The notes under the pieces: model-generated
Told to the model about the DNA's origin: nothing
The model's database searches: none
Seen by the model: the letters and a program-made list of their open reading frames with translations, nothing else
Made by a program: the position numbers and the translations under genes
Part shown: piece by piece, positions 15,908 to 62,203 of the stretch
How the letters are laid out: each line of letters starts with the position of its first letter
Position numbering within the stretch: the stretch's first letter is position 1
IMG/VR virus record: IMGVR_UViG_2788500588_000003
DNA from: an uncultured virus (IMG/VR IMGVR_UViG_2788500588_000003)
Lineage: Duplodnaviria > Heunggongvirae > Uroviricota > Caudoviricetes
Reading direction: 5' to 3' (one strand)
DNA: 64,000 bases

Positions 15908-16342
15908 TTACTTCAACATCATATCTAAAACTCTTTCCCTCACTCGCTGAACACTAGTATGACTTATATTAAGCTTGGCACCAATCCAACGGAATGACAT
16001 ACCCTCTAGTAACCAGAAAAGTACTTCCTGTTCAAGGTCTCCAGTTACTTTATCAGCTAAATTTTGAACCAATAGCAGTTCATTTTGGATCTTGTTAATA
16101 CGCCCCTCTCGTAAAGCTTTCATCTGTACATGAGCATAAACTGGGTCACTTTTATTTCCAATAGCCTTAGGCATTGTTGCCTCAAAACCATACTTAACTG
16201 TAGAAGCAGCAGTTGTTAATGACTCCAATTCTTCCTTCATTCTCATGTACTTACACATGTTGTCATGGTATTTCTTAATTGCCTGGTCTAGTTGGTACCG
16301 ATTTAGTTGTGTTTTTTCTTTTAACATAGTTTTATCCTCCAC
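15908..16342 (-). CDS. Late transcriptional activator (ArpU/RinA-like, C-terminal HTH)
   Basis: YGFEATMPKA...SDPV and C-terminal HTH (GMSFRWIGAKLNISHTSV); homologous to 58071-58511. Confidence 0.8.
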   Translation of the reverse strand: MEDKTMLKEKTQLNRYQLDQAIKKYHDNMCKYMRMKEELESLTTAASTVKYGFEATMPKAIGNKSDPVYAHVQMKALREGRINKIQNELLLVQNLADKVTGDLEQEVLFWLLEGMSFRWIGAKLNISHTSVQRVRERVLDMMLK

Positions 16343-16563
16343 TGATTAAATTACCGCGCTTTTGATTTTTATATTCTATTCGTCCAATTAATATCTTTAC
16401 CTACTCCAATCATGCTTTCAGCTATAGCACATACACCCCTATTTACCAAGAATTTCTAATATCTTTAGTCTCTCCACTTCAAAATCTAGCGTGTTGTTAT
16501 TAGATTCAACAGATGAAGCTGGTAAATCTTCTTTATTATTACGATTGGTAAACCACTCTGGCA

Positions 16564-17461
16564 CTATCTCTTTTCGACATTTAGGTTTTGATAAGAATAT
16601 TGGGTAGATTGTTTCTCTCTTTCATTCTTGGCCTTTAGTTGCTCAACATTCGTTATAAAGTCCTTTCGCCAGTTTGCTAAAATTCGTTCTGTATACTGCA
16701 TTGCTTTGTGTGGTTGTTGTAGTGCGGTAATTTTCATGGCTTCATAAACAAGCGCTGGATTATTTTTTCGTACCATGTCTTCTATACGTTCACAAATATA
16801 ACCAGAAGCTCTTTGTATGTTTTTATCATAGAATTGTATTAGAAATTTTAATTGTTCCTCAGTAACTGACAAATGACTGATTATTTCACCTTCTGCTATT
16901 TGTTTTTGTTTTTCTTTTCTTTTTCTTTTCTTTTTCTTTTCGTTTTTCTTTTTCCCCAAACTCTTTAGAAGGTGTATCGATATAGTATTGATATGGTATC
17001 GAGCCTATATCATTAATAGGCTGGGGTTCTTCCTGCTCATTCAATCCATTTAACAGTATTGATACGTTATCGATACTATATCCGAACAGTTCTAATGAGG
17101 TAACATAGCTCTTAACAAATGGGATATGTTTTACAGCAAGCAGCTCCTTTTCGATACATTTCTTTACTTTAGGTGAATTTATAAAATTGTATTTTGCCCA
17201 GTTAGTTAACATGATTTCTTTCGTTAATTCGTTGTAATTTATTTTTCCGTATTCAAAGAACCTTTGTAATAGCTTTTGTACTGTCTCACGGTTGTACCCT
17301 GTATGCATTTCTATTACTCTGTAAGGTAACTCGTAAATGCCACATTGTGTTGTATTACTGTTTGTCATCAAATACAGATAGAAGTATTTCTCCTCTGGCG
17401 TAAGATCTAATACAAAGCCATCATCCCAAAATGTTGTGTGTACATGTCTGTATTTAGCCAT
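16564..17461 (-). pseudogene. Phage replication initiator with DnaD-like C-terminus, frameshifted
   Basis: MAKYRHVHTTFW...LTPEEKYFYLYL N-half and YTERILANW C-half lie in different frames, broken in the GAAAAA-repeat linker ~16910-16955. Confidence 0.75.
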
Positions 17462-19143: not shown

Positions 19144-19157
19144 AGAACGTATGTTTG
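19144..19157. promoter_or_regulatory. LexA (SOS/Cheo) box
   Basis: AGAACGTATGTTTG matches GAAC-N4-GTTY; directly upstream of the ImmA-like gene. Confidence 0.7.
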
Positions 19158-19661
19158 CAAAAGAGGGATGTTATGACTTTCGTTTATACTCATTTAGAAG
19201 ATTACATAAAAGATTTATTCACTAGCATTAATGTGACCAGTCCAAAACAATTAGATCCAAGAATAATAGGTCCTAAACTTGGTTTTAAAGTCATTTACTT
19301 ACCTTTCGATTCAGTAAGCTATGACAACATCATTTACATAGACTCACGTTTATCCAAGCGGGAACAATGGCAAGAATTTTGCCATGAGTTGGGCCATGTG
19401 ATCTCACATTCTGGGAACCAAACAAAAACACACCCTTTGTTTAGAGAGTATCAGGAATGGAAAGCAAATAATTTTGCTCTACAAGCATGTGTACCAACAT
19501 TCATGCTAAATAAAATCAAGCTTCCTATAAATGAAGAAAAGGCTATTAATAAAATTTGTCTACTATTTAATGTTGAATACGATTTCGCGCAAAAAAGGCT
19601 TAATCATTATTTTAATAATCATTTTTTTAGCAATTGTACTCTTCTTGAAAGGAGCTGTTAG
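19155..19661 (+). CDS. ImmA/IrrE family metallopeptidase (antirepressor)
   Basis: HELGH zinc motif, QEWKANNFA; likely start at ATG 19173. Confidence 0.9.
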   Translation: MQKRDVMTFVYTHLEDYIKDLFTSINVTSPKQLDPRIIGPKLGFKVIYLPFDSVSYDNIIYIDSRLSKREQWQEFCHELGHVISHSGNQTKTHPLFREYQEWKANNFALQACVPTFMLNKIKLPINEEKAINKICLLFNVEYDFAQKRLNHYFNNHFFSNCTLLERSC

Positions 19662-51621: not shown

Positions 51622-53036
51622 GACTCATCAACTTCTTTCGGATCTTCGTTATCCTCGTTCAATGGTTCAAGCTCGTTGCCAAACAATTGTGCGTCTTTCT
51701 GCATTTCTTGAAGTTCATACTCCACATCATCAACAATTGACAACTTAGAAAGGCGAGTACGTTCTGACACTAACCCTTTTAAAGCTTGAGAAGCTTGAGC
51801 CTCGGACAGCAAATCAATAGGGATGTTGCGTTTGTATTCATACCAAACTTTCAAGTAATCATCCTTTGAGCAAATACCTTTTTTGGCCCATGCGCTACAT
51901 AGCACTTTGAATTGGTAGCGAAGAGCAGTCGTGAACTTTCGCTCCATCGTCTTACATTTGTTCTCAAGTGCCATTAATTTGTATTTCATTGCTACGCCAC
52001 TAGCATTACCAGCAAACGATTCATCGCTGAAATTTACACTCTTAGCTAGGCGCATGATGTTCTCTTCTAAGCGATCCAGATGGTTCTCGATCATTTGATC
52101 GTTAACATCTTTGGTTAGATATTTAATGTCGTCATTCTCACCCATTAACTCGAAAATGCCTGTTCGAGCAACCTTCTTGGCGTCTTCGTCATCCATCCCC
52201 ATACCTTTAAGCACCAGGTAAGCCAACCGAAACTGTTCAATCTCGTTTGAAGCATCAGATAAAGTTCGATCATAAGCATCGATGAGGTTGTACACCTTGT
52301 CTGCATCACCCTGTAGTTCCTCGTTATTTGGAACTCCGAATAAAGGGCAATAGTCGAATAAATGCTTTCTTTCATTTTTCAAAGCAAAAGGTGAATCAGT
52401 ATCAGTGCGAGTGTAGAGTCTTTCAGTTGTTGCATCATAAAAGACCAGCTGCTCAATTTCTACTTTTTCACCATCAGCATCAAGTTCAGCACTTTTAAAA
52501 TATCGAATAGCGTATTTTGGTTCACTAACGTCTGCTGTTTCAGAAAGAATGATTGTTTCCCATGGATCAATTGTCGTAACTCGTTCATTTCCGTCCGTAT
52601 CAATGTAAAGCAGTCGTGCTGAATAGCCACAAATAGCTGTTTTCTTGCCTGACTCACTATCAAGATCATCAACAGAATTACGCAAATTAAAAAGCTCAAT
52701 CGCCTCTGATAATTTATCAAGGCCTTGAGCTTGTTTGTCTACTACGTATGAAATTGGATTACCGAACATGTAACCAACTTTTGTATCTACTATTTCAGCG
52801 TCTAAAGGGTTATTGAGTGTATTGTTTACTTTGTCATCAACACGAACCACATGATCATTACCTTGCGCATAATCGGTTGGTTTACGTGTTAAAATCGGTA
52901 CTGCTGACAGTTCAGCTTTGTATCGATTGTAGTTGAGTAATCGCTTGTTTCGTTCAGCCTTGGTTTCTTCTACTAGCTTATCAAGTAATAGAGGTGTAAC
53001 ACCCTTCGCATCGATATAAGCAATGTATTCGTTCAC
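51618..53036 (-). CDS. Portal protein (SPP1 gp6-like)
   Basis: IVDTKVGYMFGNP, LIDAYD..LSD..N and GNASGVAMKYKL motifs. Confidence 0.95.
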   Translation of the reverse strand: MNEYIAYIDAKGVTPLLLDKLVEETKAERNKRLLNYNRYKAELSAVPILTRKPTDYAQGNDHVVRVDDKVNNTLNNPLDAEIVDTKVGYMFGNPISYVVDKQAQGLDKLSEAIELFNLRNSVDDLDSESGKKTAICGYSARLLYIDTDGNERVTTIDPWETIILSETADVSEPKYAIRYFKSAELDADGEKVEIEQLVFYDATTERLYTRTDTDSPFALKNERKHLFDYCPLFGVPNNEELQGDADKVYNLIDAYDRTLSDASNEIEQFRLAYLVLKGMGMDDEDAKKVARTGIFELMGENDDIKYLTKDVNDQMIENHLDRLEENIMRLAKSVNFSDESFAGNASGVAMKYKLMALENKCKTMERKFTTALRYQFKVLCSAWAKKGICSKDDYLKVWYEYKRNIPIDLLSEAQASQALKGLVSERTRLSKLSIVDDVEYELQEMQKDAQLFGNELEPLNEDNEDPKEVDES

Positions 53037-53048
53037 TGTACCACCCCC

Positions 53049-54314
53049 TTATTTTGAATTGACCCCTTTCACGCTGGCAACATCGTAATCATCCAGCCCA
53101 TACCACATTGCCGAAAATGTATGTGGATCAATATTAAATTCGTCTTCATAGATTTCATCTGTTTTAGGATCTTTCTTGAAGGTTAGCTCCTTCAACTCTC
53201 GAATTGTATTTACACAAGCATCTGAACAAATGATACGCTTGAAACGTTTCATCTTCTTTGTGTTCTCAATACGCGTTAGCTTCTTACAAGCAAACATACG
53301 AAAGCCTCGCTGCTTGTAGTAAGCAATTGTTTTTGGCTCCGCATTATCAGCTTTAATTATTGATTTCTTTAACCCTTCTTCCTCAAGTTCATCAGCAGTT
53401 TTATCATCGGTCATGCCTCGTTTGTAATACTCCCAGTAGATGTATAGCCACTTATTCTCATGATCTACAACCATGCGTAATAGTGCATTGTAGGAATCAA
53501 CAAATCCAAAGTCCATGCCGTTCTTTCGTATTGGTTTTCTAATATTGGCTATTTCAGCCATTACCTCGTCATGAGGCTTTGTCTCAAACTGTGGCAACAC
53601 TAATACCCCGTTGACTCCGAAACGCCCTTTACGCGCAATTCTATAAAGATCAGGATCATATGACTCCATTTCATCAAGTTGTTCGATATAGCTTGCTGGC
53701 AAAAACAAATTATCATCTGCTGTTGAGTGGTGATAATATGTGTTGTTCACTATGATGGTTCTTAGCTTGTAAAGTTCCTCATCATCTAAGACAAAGTAGT
53801 CTTCCAACTCGTTTTTAAAGAAATGCTTATACACCCAATTCCCTTTTGATACTGGATTAGTGGAAAGAATAATAAACAGGGCCAATGTTGGATGTCGTAA
53901 ACGGCCTAGTAATTCCTTAAAACCTGCATATTTAATTTCACTACATTCCTCCAACCAAATGAGAGAAATGTTGTTGATAGATTTTAGCTTTTCAGGTTTA
54001 TCCATTCCTCGAAAGATTATCTTAGAGCCATTCGGGAACTTCACAGTCATAGGTGATGAACTCGTCTTTATCTTGCCAGATAAACCTAAATCCTCAATGA
54101 TTTCAGTAAACAAAGAAAACGTACTATCTCTGTGTGTATCGTAAACTTCACGAACGACAAGAGCTGTACGTTTTTCTTCAAGTAATTTCAAAAGTATTTT
54201 AAGTGCTACATGATAGGACTTCGAAGAACCATACCCTCCGACTAAAAGTTGAGTTTTGCAACTCCAGTCGAAAAGGAAATCGTCAAATCGAGGATTAATT
54301 TCTTTCTCCATCAA
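53049..54314 (-). CDS. Terminase large subunit (PBSX family)
   Basis: GGYGSSKS Walker A, IWLEE, STNP, DFGF and [10 protein letters not shown] motifs. Confidence 0.95.
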
Positions 54315-55084
54315 TCCTCACCCTTTCGTTTGATGACAATCTCAATAGGTCCATCTTCTTTATTATCAAGTTTTTCAATTTCTGCTTTCGTCTTATCAAT
54401 GTTCAACTGCATCTGCTCCAGTTTAAGCCTACGTTCATCATCCTCTGTTGTAAGGTCCATAAACTGCTTAACCAAGTTACGATGTTCAGCAAATGCCCTT
54501 GTTTGAGCCTTAATGTAAGATTCATAGCGTTCATGAGCATAGATGACTTTGTAATCTGTCTTGCTCATGCCCTCTGCATCCATCTCACCACTGATTTCTT
54601 TCAGATGGTCAAACGGATCTTCAACCCACATAATCTTTTGAGCACGAATGATAGCAGCAAAGCTCAATTCAATTTGCAACCATAACTGGTCAACTACATC
54701 GAAGTCTTGTAAAGCCTCCATGATTTCAACTTGTTCATCAAAAAGGAACTTACTTCGCAAGCCATGAATCATAGCAGCCCTGTTCCGTTTGGTGAATTGA
54801 TTTTGCGGATTTGGGTTACCACTCCTCTTCTTCACTCGCCCATCCTTCTTGGGAGGTTTGTCGTTTATGACTTCTTCTGCATCATTGTTAATTGTAGTTT
54901 CATTTGTAGTACTGCATTCATTTGTTTGTAGTACTACATTCCACTTATCACGACTTTTCCACGCTGATATTGTTTTCTCTGGTACATTCAATTGTTCAGC
55001 TATTGCTCGATTGGTTATGTCGCCATTATGTTGTTTGAATATCTTAAGTGCTTCATCTCTTCTAGGATCTCTTTGTCTAGCCAT
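54311..55084 (-). CDS. Terminase small subunit
   Basis: [25 protein letters not shown]. Confidence 0.9.
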
Positions 55085-55142
55085 ATCTCATAAACACCAC
55101 CTCCAGAATCATGTCTGGTTCACGATGAACCTGACCTATATA

Positions 55143-55243
55143 TTTCACTCTCAAAAGTAAGTACCGACGAATCAAAGGGGAGGAAAACTCTGCTCGATAC
55201 TCACTTTTCAGGGCAAAATAAAAACACCCCGAAGGATGTTTTT
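55143..55243 (-). repeat. UUCG terminator plus long hairpin unit (copy 1)
   Basis: Shares CACTCTCAAAA...TTTTCA.RGCAAAA.AAAAA frame with 55656-55765. Confidence 0.55.
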
Positions 55244-55244
55244 C

Positions 55245-55592
55245 TTATAGTCTTGGCAAATTAAGAGTTTTAATTATATTTTTTAGTAATTCAGATACCT
55301 CGTGAATATCCAGGTTGCCGTTGGTAATCAGTTCTAATAACCTTTCATCACTAATGGTACTTTCGCTCACATTTTTTTTCTTACTAATGGTTTGTCCATT
55401 ATCAGGTTGGATTGTTTGCTCAGTATATTTTCTTATTTCCCACGAGCCTTTGCTTATCCATATCTCTCTGATTTCTTCTTCAAAACCCAACCCACCATTT
55501 ATATCCTTACTTTTTAATACTAGATATGATAATTTTTCTGTTTTATCAGCACTTTGATCTGATAAATTTGATATAGCTTCTATAAGATTCAT
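55245..55592 (-). CDS. Hypothetical moron protein
   Basis: 115-aa ORF, GGAGGTG RBS. Confidence 0.7.
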   Translation of the reverse strand: MNLIEAISNLSDQSADKTEKLSYLVLKSKDINGGLGFEEEIREIWISKGSWEIRKYTEQTIQPDNGQTISKKKNVSESTISDERLLELITNGNLDIHEVSELLKNIIKTLNLPRL

Positions 55593-55655
55593 TGATCTTC
55601 ACCTCCCACTTAATCATAAGCCGGGAGGTAACAAATTGGAACAATTTTCTACAAA

Positions 55656-55765
55656 TTCCACTCTCAAAACCACACCAAACTCTGCCCTCTCAACTCATAG
55701 TGTTTTGGCTGTTTGATGCAGTTTTCAAAGCAAAAGAAAAAGCCTCCATCCGAAGATGAAAGCTT
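55656..55765 (-). repeat. UUCG terminator plus long hairpin unit (copy 2)
   Basis: Minus strand TGAAAACTGCATCAAAC...GTTTGGTGTGGTTTTGA stem. Confidence 0.55.
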
Positions 55766-55969
55766 AAATATTGTGGTAAATTGTCGAGTGCTCTTTTCCG
55801 ACTCGTGGTAGAGCGACACCACGTTATTTTGTAACGAATTGTGTTCTAATTTTAGAGTGCATTTCCGTGCACTTGTTGATGTAGTAAGTTTGACTGAAAT
55901 TATGGAAAGTGGACGAAGTTCACATATAAACCACTTCTTCAGTTTTATTTGCCTGTTCCCTATATCTCT

Positions 55970-56119
55970 TAAAAAATATGGGCCGGCCATGTATGTCTTG
56001 CTCCGAACAAGTTTGTTCAGCGCGGGTCGGTCGTCGGTCTGTCTTTTCCTAATATTTAGGATTTTATAAATACCAAGGGAGGAAACCTTTACCGCACCGA
56101 ACCTACCTCCGAGTTTACA
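55970..56119 (-). ncRNA. Conserved structured late-operon leader (copy 2)
   Basis: Homologous to 15575-15715 with compensatory changes. Confidence 0.55.
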
Positions 56120-56143
56120 ATACATTTTTTCTATCACAAACTT

Positions 56144-56186
56144 TCGTACATATATTACATTTGTTCCTTCTGTTACATTTGTTCCA
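56144..56186. promoter_or_regulatory. 9-bp-period repeats, putative late-activator binding sites
   Basis: TCGTACA, TATTACA, TGTTCCT, TGTTACA and TGTTCCA at 56144/53/62/71/80. Confidence 0.6.
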
Positions 56187-56270
56187 ATGTCAAGAAAAGT
56201 AATAATTTATTTAATGCTCTACATCTGCAAGTAAGCAACAACTTACATGAGACATCAGTCAATTAATTTA

Positions 56271-56323
56271 AGAGGAAAATAGCTTGACTTCACGAAACTT
56301 ATGAAGTCAAGCTATTTTCCTCT
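56271..56323. terminator. Perfect 22-bp inverted repeat ending the tripartite cassette
   Basis: AGAGGAAAATAGCTTGACTTCA / TGAAGTCAAGCTATTTTCCTCT. Confidence 0.7.
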
Positions 56324-56334
56324 CTCTTAAATTA

Positions 56335-56910
56335 TTATTTTTTAGAAGTTCCTAAATCATCATACTCTTGCAAAATTTCTTTATTACTTCTTTCAAAGTC
56401 AGACCCTACTCTTGAAAAGAAATTCCCAAAATGGTGAGAAATTTGTTCTAAATATGGATTCGTTGGTCGTAACCTTTTAGTTTGTTTTTTAGCAAAAGCA
56501 TCTAAAAACGCATAAGGCAAGGTATGTAATTTAGAATAATCAATTATATATGACTTATCTAACACTTCATGTTCCTTATGTAAGATAAAATATCCTGGTC
56601 TACGTCCGGAATTGGTTTCGGAAACTAAATTTTTTGAATAAGCATTAATAGGATAGATGCTTGCACAAATCACTGATTCAATAGGTTTCCTACCTCTTTC
56701 TGGCTCATTTGCTAAGTCACAAGCTTGACTCATAACAATCAAATTTTTTGTTTCAACAAGAACTTCCGAATGTTTTTCTAAATTTTCAAAAGTAAAATCA
56801 GGAAGACTTTCTATGTGATTAATTCCAATTGTAATAATAGGAACATCAAATAAAATATCTCCCTGTGTAATTAATTCAGTTGACTTTCCTAGATGGTAAA
56901 GAGAAGACAT
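56335..56910 (-). CDS. Putative PemK/MazF-fold toxin-like protein
   Basis: QGDI...LIVMSQACDL...PY.E....HF..FF.RVG pattern. Confidence 0.6.
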   Translation of the reverse strand: MSSLYHLGKSTELITQGDILFDVPIITIGINHIESLPDFTFENLEKHSEVLVETKNLIVMSQACDLANEPERGRKPIESVICASIYPINAYSKNLVSETNSGRRPGYFILHKEHEVLDKSYIIDYSKLHTLPYAFLDAFAKKQTKRLRPTNPYLEQISHHFGNFFSRVGSDFERSNKEILQEYDDLGTSKK

Positions 56911-57467
56911 TATGAAAGGTCACTTCCCATCTCAACATTTTCTATTGCCTTAAAAGGAATATTAATTCTTGTTTTATTCACTGGGAAAGAAGGCTCTTCT
57001 CTTTCATAATTCAGATTATCCTCTATACCATTCGAAGATAATACAACAGTTCTTTTAACTTCTCGGAAGGGCACATTGAGACGCACCTTATTAATTTCTA
57101 CAGAAGGTTCTTCTCTTTCGTAATTAATAACTTTCTCGCGAAAATCTGAAAAGTTAGAAGCTAGTTGACTTTGAGAAGCGATGTTCTTCTTTTCAGCCAT
57201 GGCTTTCATCCCCTTCACAATAGACGGACTTTGAGAAACAACGAACTTTGGTTGGTTTTTTGATGACATAATATGCGCATGTGCTGTCATCTGACTATCA
57301 AAACTCGAATTATACTTTCCTACACTTTCACTAACTGAAGTTTTAACATTTTGTGGTGTAGCTGCTGGTGAGCATAGACTAACTACATTGCAAAAAGCAA
57401 TAACAGCAGTAGCTTTAATAAAAGTGTTAACAGTTCTTTCTTTTTTATACGCTATTGTTGCTACCAT
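56910..57467 (-). CDS. Hypothetical protein with hydrophobic N-terminus and two C-terminal repeats
   Basis: NYEREEPS...NK.R.N.PF twice, 38 aa apart; TAATG coupling to the next gene. Confidence 0.75.
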   Translation of the reverse strand: MVATIAYKKERTVNTFIKATAVIAFCNVVSLCSPAATPQNVKTSVSESVGKYNSSFDSQMTAHAHIMSSKNQPKFVVSQSPSIVKGMKAMAEKKNIASQSQLASNFSDFREKVINYEREEPSVEINKVRLNVPFREVKRTVVLSSNGIEDNLNYEREEPSFPVNKTRINIPFKAIENVEMGSDLS

Positions 57468-57470
57468 ATA

Positions 57471-57875
57471 TTACTCACCTTCCTTTAAAAAAGTTACAGG
57501 TATGTGGAATGTATTAAGTTTTTCCTCATTAAATAATACTTCTACAGAATAAAAACCAGAACCTTTGAAAGGTAAGTTATTGAATGATACCCCCAAAGTA
57601 AAGCCCATAAACACTTCTTTGTTATCAACACTTCCTGGTGTGTCGTTAGGAACATGTATGAAGTCTGTATCAAAGAAATCATTGTTTTGAGGATCTTTGA
57701 CTATTATTCTACAAGTATTATCCTCTAGTAAAGAGTAATCACATACAGTAAAAACAATATTTAAAGAAAATTCATCAGTGTTAACTTCTACAATATCTAG
57801 TGGACTAAAAACCCCACTCTGACTTCTAAAATTTTCATCGTTTTCACAAAAAACGAAATTAGTTAGCTTTGCCAT
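57471..57875 (-). CDS. Beta-sandwich protein (DUF6941-like)
   Basis: FVFCE...F.NLPF...G.Y.VEV.FN.E.L....IPV pattern. Confidence 0.6.
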   Translation of the reverse strand: MAKLTNFVFCENDENFRSQSGVFSPLDIVEVNTDEFSLNIVFTVCDYSLLEDNTCRIIVKDPQNNDFFDTDFIHVPNDTPGSVDNKEVFMGFTLGVSFNNLPFKGSGFYSVEVLFNEEKLNTFHIPVTFLKEGE

Positions 57876-58070
57876 GTTTGTTCTCTCCTAAAACATATGA
57901 TAAACCTTCCCTAGACTAATTATACACCACTGAGAGTTACTTTTGAAAATTTATTGATGAAATTTACTCTGTTATCGAAAAATGTTATTACTGAAAATAA
58001 AAAAGCCTTGGGAAACCTATATAAATAAGTTTCCCAAGGTTGTTAGTTACCTTAAAGAATTATTCCTACT

Positions 58071-58511
58071 TTATTGCACTATCATCTGATTCAAAATGTC
58101 ATTTCTAACCCTAAATATTGTAGTGCTAGATAATCTCATATGCTTACCAATAGCACGCATGCTATCACCATCCAGCAATCTATGGAGGACCTCAATCTCC
58201 CTGTCTCCGGTTACTAGTGGTATACGCACTTGCACTTCCGCAATCTTTTGCTCATATTCCTTAATGCGATAATTAAGTGCATAAACTCTGCGTTGTACTT
58301 CTGTATACACTGGATCACTTGTACCTCCACTTGCCTTCGGCAATGTTGCCTCAATACCATACATAGCCGTTTTCGCCCCAATGTAACTGTTATTATCAAC
58401 CTTTGCAACTGGCTGTCTTGCTTCTTCAATGGTTTCAACCATCCATCGATAATTTTCAATCCACTGAAGTAAATTCTCTTTAGTTACTTTAATTTGCCCT
58501 TGTTTGCCCAT
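58071..58511 (-). CDS. Late transcriptional activator (ArpU/RinA-like)
   Basis: YGIEATLPKA.G..SDPV plus C-terminal HTH. Confidence 0.8.
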   Translation of the reverse strand: MGKQGQIKVTKENLLQWIENYRWMVETIEEARQPVAKVDNNSYIGAKTAMYGIEATLPKASGGTSDPVYTEVQRRVYALNYRIKEYEQKIAEVQVRIPLVTGDREIEVLHRLLDGDSMRAIGKHMRLSSTTIFRVRNDILNQMIVQ

Positions 58512-58650
58512 TAGGTTTGCCCTCCTAAGTGTGTTATAATGCTTGTACCAGATTGTCTTAAAAGGGCATGTACCAATTCGAGCTGTAGCGTCTGCAAACG
58601 CTGCGGCTTTTTTATTTACTGCGTATATTCCTCATATTGTGCAGTAACCT

Positions 58651-59892
58651 CTATACTCCAACTGCATAACGACTGCTACCTGCACACATTTCAGGTAAAT
58701 TAGCTCTCACTAATGCGTCAGCAAAGGGTGGCGGCACGCTATTTCCTACCCTCTTAATCTGCTCTACTTTCTTACCTGGGTGCTGATAGTTACTTGGAAA
58801 GCCTTGTCCAGCAAATAACTCATGCGGTTGTAACATACGTAATCCGATGTCAATAACATGGTAGCCATTAGTGCGAACTGCTGTTAATGCGAAACGATCT
58901 TTAGTAGTGATTGTATGCAAAGGTTCACTTAGTCCCTGTGCTGTGCTTTGTCCGTAATATTTGGTTAAAAAAGCTGTCACAAGTCCAAATCTATTACCAC
59001 CAGCTGTGATTGTGTGAAGTGGTGTGTTTAATGACAATCCTCTAACCTCTTTTTCTGATTGCTCAGTATAATAACTGATTAAAAAGGCTGCTTTATGTTC
59101 ATCTGGAACCATAAAGGGCTTTTTTGCATCAATTACAAAGCGCTGCAAACCCTTTTCAATACGTTTTAGGGTGTTTGGTACTAGTGGTTTCTTTCTTTCA
59201 AATATAGATGGTGCGCCTATACTCCAATCAATTATTTCACTTGCTGTACGCCAAGGTTTTAATCTTCCTAATTGCACAGCTGGCGATTGAGGATCTCCGT
59301 GTGTTGGATTTGGCCATTCGATAGCTTTACCATCACATCTAGCAATCATAAAAAATCGCTTACGAATAGTAGGTGCACCATAATCACATGCATGCAATTC
59401 CCTAAAATCTACCTCGTAGCCTAATGACTCAAGTGCTTTCACAAAACTTTGAAATGTTTTCCCCTTCAATTCCTTAATAGGTTTACCATTTTCTATTGGT
59501 CCCCAATCTTTAAATTCCTCTACATTTTCCAACATGATTACTCTAGGCTTAACTGCTAATGCCCACCTAACAGTAACCCACGCAAGACCTCTTATTTCTT
59601 GTTTAACTGGTGTGCCACCTTTTGCTTTTGAATGGTGAGTACAATCTGGACTAAACCAAGCAAGCCCTACTTTACGACCTCTACATGCTTCTTTAGGGTC
59701 TACATCCCAAACCGATTCACAATAATGCTCTGTATCTGGATGATTTAACTTGTGCATCTCAATAGCAGCAGGATCATGATTAATTGCAATATCTACGCTC
59801 ATTCCTGTTGCCATTTCAATACCTGTACTTGCTCCTCCACCACCAGCGAAATTGTCTACAATTATTTCTCTAAATAAGCTTAATTGCTTCAC
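58651..59892 (-). CDS. DNA cytosine-C5 methyltransferase
   Basis: FAGGGG, SPDC, ENV, R.RFF and GNSV motifs. Confidence 0.95.
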   Translation of the reverse strand: MKQLSLFREIIVDNFAGGGGASTGIEMATGMSVDIAINHDPAAIEMHKLNHPDTEHYCESVWDVDPKEACRGRKVGLAWFSPDCTHHSKAKGGTPVKQEIRGLAWVTVRWALAVKPRVIMLENVEEFKDWGPIENGKPIKELKGKTFQSFVKALESLGYEVDFRELHACDYGAPTIRKRFFMIARCDGKAIEWPNPTHGDPQSPAVQLGRLKPWRTASEIIDWSIGAPSIFERKKPLVPNTLKRIEKGLQRFVIDAKKPFMVPDEHKAAFLISYYTEQSEKEVRGLSLNTPLHTITAGGNRFGLVTAFLTKYYGQSTAQGLSEPLHTITTKDRFALTAVRTNGYHVIDIGLRMLQPHELFAGQGFPSNYQHPGKKVEQIKRVGNSVPPPFADALVRANLPEMCAGSSRYAVGV

Positions 59893-59931
59893 ATTAGCTA
59901 CCTCCTTTACTGCACAATATCTTTCAAATAC

Positions 59932-60150
59932 TCACCTAGCCCACCTACGCAAAAGACTAATCTGCTCAAGCTCTTTTCCGATGCTCCTTAGTTCTCTATA
60001 AACCTTGCATCCTCTGCATTTCTTACTTGGATCATAAGCTTTTCGCTTCGGACACCCTTTGCATTTGAGAAAAGCTATGTGGTCCTGCTGATTGATTAGC
60101 CTGGCTCTGCGTTGTTTAACTTCCTTGCGAACCGCGTTCACTTCCAGCAC
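59932..60150 (-). CDS. Small zinc-finger protein
   Basis: CKGC...CRGC.V..EL..IG. Confidence 0.65.
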   Translation of the reverse strand: MLEVNAVRKEVKQRRARLINQQDHIAFLKCKGCPKRKAYDPSKKCRGCKVYRELRSIGKELEQISLLRRWAR

Positions 60151-60563
60151 CCTACTTTAGCCTCTTTACGTGTTTTCCTAGCCTTTTTAAGTTCATCATG
60201 AGTAATCCAACCACCATCAATCTTCGAGTACGTTAGAAGCTTTAATTCATGCGGATAACGATATTCAAATAACTTCTTCCTCAATTCAAATTGCTGTGTA
60301 ACCATTCCCTTAATATCAACTACCTCTGTATGGCCATCTGCATAATGAACAGTAAAATCCGCATTGTAACCAATCTCACGATATTTCTTACCGTTCTTTT
60401 CGAACTTGGGCAATAATACAAACCTTGGCTGTAATTCAAAGGCTGTCACAACGCCTTGTGCTTGTTGATGTTTCAAGTAATCGTAATACCTTGCTTCTAT
60501 CGCTGAATCGAATGTAATTCCATCATGTACGACTTTTTTGTTTCCGTATTTTGCTTTGCTCAT
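60138..60563 (-). CDS. DUF1064 putative endonuclease
   Basis: KYGNKK...DGITFDS..EA, Y.ADF and DIKG motifs. Confidence 0.9.
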   Translation of the reverse strand: MSKAKYGNKKVVHDGITFDSAIEARYYDYLKHQQAQGVVTAFELQPRFVLLPKFEKNGKKYREIGYNADFTVHYADGHTEVVDIKGMVTQQFELRKKLFEYRYPHELKLLTYSKIDGGWITHDELKKARKTRKEAKVGCWK

Positions 60564-60572
60564 GTTTTCCTC

Positions 60573-61394
60573 CTACACAATTCCAAAAAGTGTTTCTTGT
60601 ATATATCCACGCTCAATTATTTGAGGGTTGAGCCACAAACTTTCACATTTTTCTTTTGCAGCTTCAGTTGTGGCCATCTTCGAAATTCTTGTCCAACCTC
60701 GTAAGATGTCATTGTACATATCGCTGTTGTAGCCACTAATCATGGCAAAACCTTGATGCTTATTTAAAGCCAGAAGTAATGTTTCGTGTTGCTCATTTGT
60801 CATTTCATGTGCATAGTGTCGTTTTGTACGTGTGCTTAATAAATACGGCGGATCACTGTAAATCAAACAATCCTCTTTGTTGTAACGGCCTATTAATGTT
60901 GCAGCATCTAAATTTTCAATTTGGACATTTTGTAATCGCTCCGTTGCTTCTAAAACGACATCTGGTAGCTTACGCCAATCAGGTAATGCACTAAATGTTG
61001 TTGAGTCTACATTGTGGCGCCAGCCTGTACGGTCGCTTGTTTTACCTCCACGGGCCATCCAACAACGAACAAGGAATACTCTAGCTCTTTCTAAGTCACT
61101 TAACCGGCCTTGTAATGCCTCAAAAGATGAAATGTATTCTTGTCTTGAATATGGAGTGAGTTGAATATGTTTAGCTAGCTGTTCCGGTTGTTCTCGAATG
61201 ACTTTGAATAGATTCACGATATTGCCATCAATGTCGTTCACTGTTTCTATTTTTGAGGGTTGCTTGTTGAATAACACGGCACCACTACCAAAGTGAGTTT
61301 CAAGATACACATTGTGCTCTGGCATTTGACTTACTATCCATTCTGCTAAGTTCCACTTGCTACCCACGTAATTTAGAATTCTTTTCATGTTCAT
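60573..61394 (-). CDS. DNA adenine methyltransferase (Dam/D12 class)
   Basis: Y.GSK, FGSGAV, ETVND and DPPY motifs. Confidence 0.92.
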   Translation of the reverse strand: MNMKRILNYVGSKWNLAEWIVSQMPEHNVYLETHFGSGAVLFNKQPSKIETVNDIDGNIVNLFKVIREQPEQLAKHIQLTPYSRQEYISSFEALQGRLSDLERARVFLVRCWMARGGKTSDRTGWRHNVDSTTFSALPDWRKLPDVVLEATERLQNVQIENLDAATLIGRYNKEDCLIYSDPPYLLSTRTKRHYAHEMTNEQHETLLLALNKHQGFAMISGYNSDMYNDILRGWTRISKMATTEAAKEKCESLWLNPQIIERGYIQETLFGIV

Positions 61395-61671
61395 TCACCT
61401 TCCTCGTAATCATACTCTCCGCATACTTCCTACAAGCTTTATATTTAAGCCTCATATCAGGTCCGTATCCGTTACCAGTCCTTTGCAGAGAACATTTATA
61501 CCAATGTGTTTTGGAGTCACGTTCATGTTGTTTTTTCTCCAAGTAGTAACATGTTTTACATGTTGCATTCTCTGGTCCATAACCATATTTACGACACATA
61601 CCATTGGGTTCGATTTGTTTATTCTGCGGTGGTTCCTCTGGTAATCCTAGGTCAAATTCGATTTGCTCCAT
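61360..61671 (-). CDS. Cys-rich hypothetical phage protein
   Basis: GPENATCKTC...WYKC...AC.KY. Confidence 0.7.
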   Translation of the reverse strand: MEQIEFDLGLPEEPPQNKQIEPNGMCRKYGYGPENATCKTCYYLEKKQHERDSKTHWYKCSLQRTGNGYGPDMRLKYKACRKYAESMITRKVNEHEKNSKLRG

Positions 61672-61696
61672 CAGCTCACCTCAATCCCGTTATTCC

Positions 61697-62203
61697 TTAA
61701 AATGGTAAATCATCCTCACTAACCTCAATCGGTCCCTTACTATTAGCAAATGGATCTTCATCCACTCTCGTATAACTTGGCTGGTTATTATTACCGCCAT
61801 AATTGCCCTGTGGTGGATTTTGATTCGTTCCACCTGTATTTGTACTAGATTGATAGTTTGGTGTGCTCTGTGCGCCTCCTGTGCTGTTTCTTGGCTCTAA
61901 GAATTGGATGCTGTCTGTTACAACGTCTGTTGTAAAAACACGCTTACCATCCTGCCCCTCATAGCTGCCTGTTTGGATTCGCCCTTCCAAACCTATTAAA
62001 TTACCTTTCTTCATGAAGTTGGCTAGATTCTCAGCTTGTTTACGCCATGCCATACAAGGGATGAAATCTGCCTGTTGCTCCCCTTCATTTTTGAATGGTC
62101 TGTTAACTGCCACTGTGAAGCGACATGATGCAATTCCGTTCGGTGTGTAGCGTAATTCAGGATCTTTTGTAAGTCGGCCAACTAAAACGACTCGGTTAAT
62201 CAT
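61697..62203 (-). CDS. ssb: Single-stranded DNA-binding protein
   Basis: [20 protein letters not shown]...DDLPF. Confidence 0.97.

Follow-up and report, generated by a model that had tools for sequence, protein, structure and literature searches.

What might a prophage gain from three small genes packed between a transcription-activator-like gene and a gene for a terminase small subunit? We have examined such a cassette on the minus strand of IMGVR_UViG_2788500588_000003, an uncultured member of the Caudoviricetes whose source record is a provirus of 75,114 bases; the window, as we call the whole stretch of DNA analysed, is 64,000 nucleotides long. A first-pass annotation of this DNA had proposed the logic of the toxin-antitoxin-chaperone (TAC) systems, with a DUF6941-like protein in place of SecB. 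Our preferred reading, to which we assign a probability of about one half, is that the cassette is an inserted prophage toxin-antitoxin pair, that a DUF6941 protein exerts control through a leader on the antitoxin, and that a phage protein diverting DUF6941 would free the toxin.

Layout and borders of the cassette

The cassette lies between the activator-like gene (58071-58511, with PHROG matches) and the terminase small subunit gene (54311-55084), and consists of three minus-strand open reading frames (ORFs) of 134, 185 and 191 amino acids. A 3-nucleotide gap separates ORF1 from ORF2 and a TAATG overlap joins ORF2 to ORF3; the ORF coordinates thus bear out the tight coupling described in the first-pass annotation. 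The features are as follows.

58006-58039, minus strand: terminator-like hairpin that closes the upstream activator gene and forms the left border of the cassette (repeat and terminator scans).
57919-57947, minus strand: candidate sigma-A-type promoter, TTCAAA-17-TATAAT (10 of 12 consensus matches; RNA contig cover begins at 57846).
57471-57875, minus strand: ORF1, 134 amino acids, DUF6941 family, triplet-associated subclade; candidate chaperone/sensor (Pfam, Atlas structure, alignments).
56910-57467, minus strand: ORF2, 185 amino acids, candidate antitoxin, made up of a leader (codons 1-89) and a payload with two repeats.
57372-57422, minus strand: hydrophobic segment in the ORF2 leader, signal-peptide-like by eye (residues 16-32, mean hydropathy 1.9).
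57198-57218, minus strand: internal in-frame Shine-Dalgarno-like site and ATG (Met90) in ORF2, which would yield a 96-amino-acid short form (duplex energy -7.7 kcal/mol).
57088-57125, minus strand: ORF2 payload repeat 1 (NYEREEPS...KVRLNVPF region), candidate toxin-binding motif (repeat family D2).
56974-57011, minus strand: ORF2 payload repeat 2 (repeat family D2).
56335-56910, minus strand: ORF3, 191 amino acids, predicted MazF/CcdB fold, unnamed family, invariant Q16, C64 and P152; candidate toxin.
56271-56292/56302-56323, unstranded: perfect 22-bp inverted repeat directly 3' of the ORF3 stop, likely terminator (repeat scan; an RNA contig ends at 56319, a weak hint).

Both of the bounding hairpins claimed earlier were therefore located, the inverted repeat having a 9-nucleotide loop and being absent from the terminator-scan listing. 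The TATAAT that had been read as the cassette's own, near 57919, is likewise present; the scan by itself does not establish it as a promoter, because promoter-like sites are no commoner in 55000-58600 than in shuffled sequence (11 versus 12.3 +/- 3.7). A search of 55100-58100 against Rfam gave only hairpin look-alikes, far under gathering scores.

DUF6941 and the recurrence of the triplet

ORF1 is a DUF6941 protein. Its Pfam match (E-value 4e-4) falls under the cut-off, and the Atlas joins it to a DUF6941 cluster by features (0.95) and by structure (template modelling score, TM, 0.85), in agreement with the identity suggested in the first pass. Family scans gave no SecB match for ORF1, for which no PDB fold search was made. 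The same order of DUF6941 gene, middle gene and toxin gene was found at nine other loci (L001, L005, L008, L009, L012, L112, L129, L145 and L146); co-occurrence in other genomes had been named beforehand as one of the points on which the proposal could founder, and it held. Within the DUF6941 subclade nearest to ORF1, nine triplets were counted among 16 distinct loci with downstream DNA (L137, which stops at the DUF6941 gene, was left out, and L144, the weakest match, has no gene coupled to DUF6941). Three pairs of ORF1 and ORF3 homologues from equally long contigs suggest further triplets.

DUF6941 tracks the leader and not the toxin, since in L114, L135, L139, L142, L143 and L147 it also stands before genes that have a leader but a different payload. 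In L139 (3001-4321), where DUF6941 follows an activator-like gene as in the window, the leader-bearing middle gene matches PDC-M32A (E-value 7e-7) and is followed by an ORF of 124 amino acids, which by eye we take to be ADP-ribosyltransferase-like, a label without a database match. Two-gene arrangements with a payload of coiled coil and membrane segment, judged by eye, occur in L135 (2890-3519; Lactococcus phage 38502), L142 (1877-2596), L143 (1040-1486) and L147 (1820-2482), and L114 (3423-4454) pairs DUF6941 with a leader on what looks by eye like a holin; the internal starts in these five loci are strong, and several of the loci adjoin lysis genes. The loci are fairly independent, with a best pair identity of 59% in DUF6941.

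A DUF6941 gene of the broad family in L118 (1486-1872) lies directly before genes read by eye as groES and groEL. We regard this adjacency as a lead towards a chaperone-like role and not as support for one.

Leader and internal start

The genes that follow the DUF6941 subclade share a design and not a sequence, namely an N-terminal leader, mostly hydrophobic, and then an in-frame start with a strong Shine-Dalgarno-like site ahead of the payload. Internal starts at or below -7.5, -8 and -9 kcal/mol were present in 14, 13 and 12 of 15 such genes, compared with 12, 11 and 8 among 116 background ORFs (by Fisher's test, p 5e-11 at -7.5 and 1e-9 at -9); the set of 15 leaves out L144, which has no gene, and L145, which has an in-frame stop. 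Among middle genes of the TIGR04255 type (see below), 1 of 45 has an internal start at -8 or below. In ORF2 the energy at Met90 (57200) is similar to those at the starts of ORF1 (-7.3) and ORF3 (-7.5). The two 38-nucleotide repeats of the ORF2 payload are 79% alike and lie 114 nucleotides apart; no ORF2 homologue was found among 30 candidates, and its alignment with other middle genes was poor. The leader with internal restart in genes after the DUF6941 subclade, ahead of differing payloads, is what is new here, and the earlier reading of the cassette had overlooked both that start and the fact that DUF6941 and leader are used again with other payloads.

L145 was considered as a natural split of leader from payload and was rejected, the site past its in-frame stop being weak (-4.0) and a nonsense change equally likely.

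These starts bring forward a different explanation, translational control, which we think rather improbable. DUF6941 acting on the nascent leader or its mRNA would set the use of the internal start, and payload amount, not antitoxin stability, would be what is sensed. The difference between DUF6941-linked genes (14 of 15 with an internal in-frame start) and TIGR04255-linked genes fits such a scheme; leaders that are about 70-110 codons long and contain a hydrophobic segment would resemble monitoring peptides such as MifM, and payloads that look by eye like membrane effectors (L114, L135, L142, L143 and L147) would require an off switch. However, in 15 of 16 cases (all but L145) the leader keeps the reading frame of the payload, for which a leader peptide and nothing more would have no use. 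No arrest motif was seen, and the internal site could have been left over from the original start of the payload once the two were fused.

The composition of the leader raises a further alternative, to which we give still less credence, that long ORF2 is anchored in the membrane or exported, so that adsorption, DNA entry or holin action would be sensed, with DUF6941 as an adaptor and not a holdase. The leaders of the window and of most DUF-type loci carry basic residues, a hydrophobic segment and small residues, and many copies adjoin lysis genes. Yet the segment is short, its hydrophobicity is only moderate (1.3-2.2 over 15 residues), it lies as far as 45 residues from the start, and two loci lack it.

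The ORF3 family and its predicted fold

ORF3 matched no Pfam or NCBIfam family and nothing convincing in PADLOC. A profile built from it reached 847 clusters at E-values of 0.001 or below, an unnamed family for which genome_contigs is estimated to contain about 880 stored stretches, their titles spanning many bacterial phyla as well as archaea; viral_contigs contains 13 loci, and the family is mostly chromosomal. In 146 aligned members Q16, C64 (146 of 146) and P152 are invariant, and G17, Q62, D65, R146, E155, F161 and R167 are nearly so. Of the motifs picked out in the first-pass annotation, QGDI and IVMSQACD are present and the third reads FFSRVG; all are conserved in the family.

The ORF3 model has a predicted local distance difference test (pLDDT) score of 95.5. 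Every Foldseek match listed for it was a MazF (best E-value 8e-4, probability 1.0), VIA-align superposed it on MazF-mt3 with Z 11.3 (root-mean-square deviation 2.5, 101 residues aligned) and on CcdB with Z 10.5, and the Atlas placed it at TM 0.60 to a PemK cluster. ORF3 is thus predicted to have the MazF/CcdB fold, and the earlier reading of the last ORF as PemK/MazF-type is carried by the model. Such a fold, taken alone, would fit an RNase or a gyrase poison equally and offers no choice between them. The Pfam PemK/MazF model PF02452 matched none of the 146 family members at E-values of 0.01 or below, and did not match the window ORF3 at 1 or below; we therefore regard ORF3 as a protein of predicted MazF/CcdB fold that is not a member of PF02452.

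Sequence searches of solved structures with ORF3, its alignment, TIGR04255 and DUF6941 returned noise only, and ORF3 had no tblastn match among annotated phages and plasmids; one plasmid match was found for a relative, and there TIGR04255 and a small gene lie upstream. Against PADLOC-DB 2.0.0 (2023), the best E-values were 0.053 for the window proteins, 0.004 for the 146 family members, none of which had a convincing match, and 0.005 for 14 partner proteins.

An exchangeable first gene and a constant second gene

We compared the surroundings of 93 distinct ORF3-family loci, from which duplicates had been dropped by C-terminal identity. The sample is biased, because 80 of the loci are the best of 588 genome matches to one central subfamily. 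Two genes upstream of the ORF3 homologue there is a TIGR04255 gene at 47 loci, a DUF6941-like gene at 5 and neither at 41 (34 with sufficient upstream DNA); all 13 TIGR04255 calls that were checked lay above the NCBIfam cut-off. Since TIGR04255, DUF6941 or neither occurs in this slot, the first gene is an exchangeable accessory part. The two families have unrelated profiles. The TIGR04255 model (pLDDT 89.9) gave weak best structural matches (TBP-like, TM about 0.3; Z at most 7.6), and SecB was not among the fold matches listed. In a quick tree with long branches TIGR04255 was gained or lost repeatedly (18 changes), and the DUF-type toxins needed 2 label changes versus 8.8 in shuffles, which shows clustering only.

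Directly upstream of the toxin-family gene at the 93 loci there is nearly always a small gene, which mostly ends in a common motif, acidic-hydrophobic with a proline and two alternating strands, that is also seen in two-gene forms. A constant, coupled small gene in this position is the layout of an antitoxin in a type II pair.

Several variants of this neighbourhood were also seen. The two-gene form in L041 and L052 (3187-3453; Promethearchaeum) has an upstream gene with an N-terminus that is DNA-binding-like by eye, and in L045 (367-1488) and L087 (2064-3479) the motif of the upstream gene forms the end of a fusion, with a RES-domain protein in the former and a C1-peptidase/GNAT-like protein in the latter. 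First-slot genes of 220-240 amino acids without a Pfam or NCBIfam match over the cut-off occur in L006 (2837-3532), L054 (2328-2996), L082 (303-1025) and L088 (2344-3063) and are possibly further accessory families.

Insertion in a cargo hot spot

The cassette has a guanine-plus-cytosine content of 32%, versus 39-40% for the flanking modules. Its DNA was present in none of 33 viral loci with related activator genes (two of which, L160 and L161, are near duplicates), and 22 of the 33 keep both flanks, the activator and a stretch matching about 56186-55960, with other genes between them. These observations bear out the earlier claim of an inserted module more directly than did a comparison with the tail element; as to that comparison, no ORF of at least 70 amino acids lies between the activator paralogue (15908-16342) and 15364.

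PADLOC was run on 34 hand-picked cargo proteins from the related loci. ShosT and ShosA occupy the same slot as the cassette in L163 and L169, and candidates for KwaA/KwaB (L155), PDC-S35 (L156 and L180) and PDC-S31 (L163 and L173), with a partial match to UzuA (L154), were found in neighbouring or more distant slots. Because other genes, ShosTA among them, lie between the kept flanks, the slot is a prophage cargo hot spot that at times holds defence systems.

This setting bears on another alternative, that the toxin-antitoxin pair and its accessory DUF6941 serve prophage maintenance or a host stress response and not phage defence. We consider it unlikely. The mostly chromosomal spread of the ORF3 family across bacteria and archaea speaks for such a role, as do the cargo in the hot spot that PADLOC does not match and the lack of a convincing PADLOC match in the 146 family members. 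On the other side, DUF6941-type copies sit at phage cargo positions by lysis genes or the activator (L001, L112, L114, L129, L135 and L139), two relatives have ShosTA at this very position, and TIGR04255 proteins are among the predicted defence genes in the DefensePredictor supplement (PMC13092281).

RNA evidence comes from contigs of a single run, X1, that contain the cassette. They cover 56319-56794 and 56840-57846, whereas 52000-55005 is without cover and 58012-62000 has almost none, a pattern that fits expression of the cassette from a silent prophage. We give no weight to the 46-base hole at 56795-56839.

The surrounding DNA offered some further observations. The non-coding stretch 55960-56186, with patches to 55140, is about 76-95% conserved in 22 of the 33 related loci, where further cargo interrupts it; it matches no Rfam family, has a low-depth RNA contig over 55800-56217, and could be a late promoter region or a small RNA. 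A 115-amino-acid ORF (55245-55592, minus strand) without a family match marks a second cargo slot and has an RNA contig of its own (55251-55570), unlike the uncovered lytic genes. One low-depth RNA contig at 58648-60661 has a joint that jumps 2012 bases and is backed by just 21 letters to one side, and is probably an artefact or derives from another locus. A second phage-like element in the window (15908-17461 and 19155-19661) carries paralogues of the prophage activator (44%), of a replication-like gene (64177-65091 of G000; 81%) and of one more control gene (73431-73937; 87%).

Comparison with known systems

Like HigBAC and CmdTAC, the cassette is located in a prophage and couples three genes, for a protein with a toxin fold, an extended partner that is probably unstructured and a small third protein. 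In those systems the ChAD is placed at the antitoxin's C-terminus (bioRxiv 10.1101/2024.02.24.581848, PMC11618068), whereas in the cassette the variable extension is N-terminal and is followed by an internal start. The third protein here is DUF6941 and not SecB-like, the order of accessory gene, antitoxin and toxin is the opposite of that in described TAC systems, and the predicted toxin fold is MazF/CcdB, seemingly without the MazF catalytic pair. The C-terminal repeats of ORF2 could nevertheless play the part that repeated ChAD motifs have in HigA. The cassette is analogous to TAC systems in layout and is not a member, because it has no SecB-like gene and its extension is N-terminal. Of the interpretation given in the first-pass annotation, the predicted MazF-type fold, the identity of DUF6941 and the co-occurrence of the three genes are supported, as are an exchangeable first gene and a slot that in some relatives bears defence systems.

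With MazEF/PemIK and CcdAB (PDB 5hk3, 4me7, 3tcj) the cassette shares the predicted fold and a small upstream gene, and the QGDI start of ORF3 corresponds to the RGDV start of MazF. However, ORF3 differs from these toxins in its length of 191 amino acids with insertions, its invariant Q-x-C-D, its lack of a Pfam match and its apparent lack of equivalents of Arg25 and Thr48, and ORF2 has no recognizable DNA-binding domain. Type II Gabija, a validated phage defence, has in GajC a split MazF-like domain with a UvrD helicase (PMC13069673); ORF3 can be set beside GajC as a divergent MazF-like protein by description and not by sequence, and the cassette has no helicase. GajC shows that divergent MazF-like proteins can act in phage defence. 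DefensePredictor DS-42 is a validated system that also has three genes, but its effector is an MBL-fold hydrolase, and its other two genes are given only as "hypothetical" (PMC13092281).

A proposed mechanism and what weighs on it

The coupling, insertion, recurrence of gene order, predicted fold, exchangeable first gene and leader with internal start are computed features, between which we infer the following steps of binding and activity. MazF and CcdB act as dimers. ORF3, as a candidate toxin of the predicted fold, may do the same, with the two ORF2 repeats filling its two equivalent sites; the repeats would likely bind and neutralize it in this way. DUF6941 would likely bind the N-terminal leader of ORF2 and keep the long form available, the leader rendering that form unstable or mislocalized unless it is held. 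Initiation at Met90 would provide a short form, smaller in amount, as a buffer independent of DUF6941. The trigger would be a phage protein: a superinfecting phage would divert DUF6941, less antitoxin would be available, the toxin would be freed and the infection would be aborted.

A number of observations weigh against this scheme, and the internal start of ORF2 is the main difficulty among them. If that start works, strict chaperone addiction is weakened, because the short form would need no DUF6941; the internal start may be a weak buffer, a fusion relic or the actual control point. The Met90 site is the second weakest of the 15, the threshold of -7.5 was picked post hoc, and L012 has no internal site. 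The leader shows no detectable sequence conservation (that of ORF2 does not align to that of L112), and in L142 and L143 it lacks hydrophobic character. In the broad Pfam family DUF6941 is mostly stand-alone, with a triplet at 1 of 19 loci (401 genomes). The C-terminal motif profile built from 86 non-DUF loci misses ORF2 (score -0.1, with 110 of 500 shuffles equal or above) and five DUF-type middle genes as well; because it fails on ORF2, the likeness of ORF2 to the upstream genes of the family is one of position and of eye only. Among the 34 cargo proteins 16 had no PADLOC match and several others matched only generic domains, and the RNA support is limited to contigs of one run.

ORF3 adds to this list. 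Profile-profile comparison of its family with MazF by hhalign was not significant (probability < 1%). MazF RNase catalysis requires Arg25 and Thr48 (PMC7354611); by strand register, under this non-significant match, the Arg25-equivalent position 55 varies among members (A 19%, Y 16%) and Thr48 falls on Y86 (F, W and Y about 15% each). The family thus appears, from its alignment, to lack the catalytic Arg and Thr and to have an invariant Cys instead, and its chemistry is probably not the textbook Arg/Thr mechanism of MazF. Our first guess would be an RNase with a site rebuilt around Q62-C64-D65 and R167, and our second a protein-binding poison like CcdB. The same residues invite the proposal that ORF3 is no toxin at all, and is instead a Cys-dependent enzyme or binding protein of MazF fold in a small regulatory or metabolic operon. 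We hold this to be very improbable: the invariance of C64, the apparent variability at the MazF catalytic positions and the absence of PemK matches in the family would suit it, but the close structural matches are all toxins, and a constant upstream small gene with a common C-terminal motif is the layout of a type II pair.

Beyond the phage-triggered toxin-antitoxin pair that we prefer for this cassette, we advance a broader proposal, and do so tentatively. DUF6941 and a leader of roughly 90 residues with internal restart may form a switch that senses phage and is portable, prophages having grafted it onto payloads unrelated to one another: antitoxins, one for a MazF-fold toxin and one for a different toxin, and membrane proteins of holin-like or coiled-coil type. 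Such a switch would be independent of SecB and would use two isoforms of one gene; here it would be joined to a widespread MazF-fold toxin family of new, possibly Cys-dependent chemistry.

Prior literature and significance

A literature search, outside which most subscription papers lay, returned no paper on DUF6941, none naming TIGR04255 in its main text, and no MazF, tripartite, chaperone or TAC system that matched the cassette by title or by the beginning of its abstract. The terms MazF and SecB were absent from two discovery preprints, and six peptide motifs of the ORF3 family were not found in those DefensePredictor supplements that were searched. Within these searches, no described system matched.

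If the preferred reading is true, DUF6941 and TIGR04255, both unstudied families, would acquire a role, and so would a MazF-fold family that comprises at least 847 clusters across bacteria and archaea. The apparent loss of the MazF catalytic pair, together with an invariant Cys in the alignment, points to a chemistry that would be new to this fold. Furthermore, chaperone-gated toxin-antitoxin immunity would be widened beyond SecB and into Gram-positive prophages, and DUF6941 with its leader would constitute a small sensor that can be grafted.

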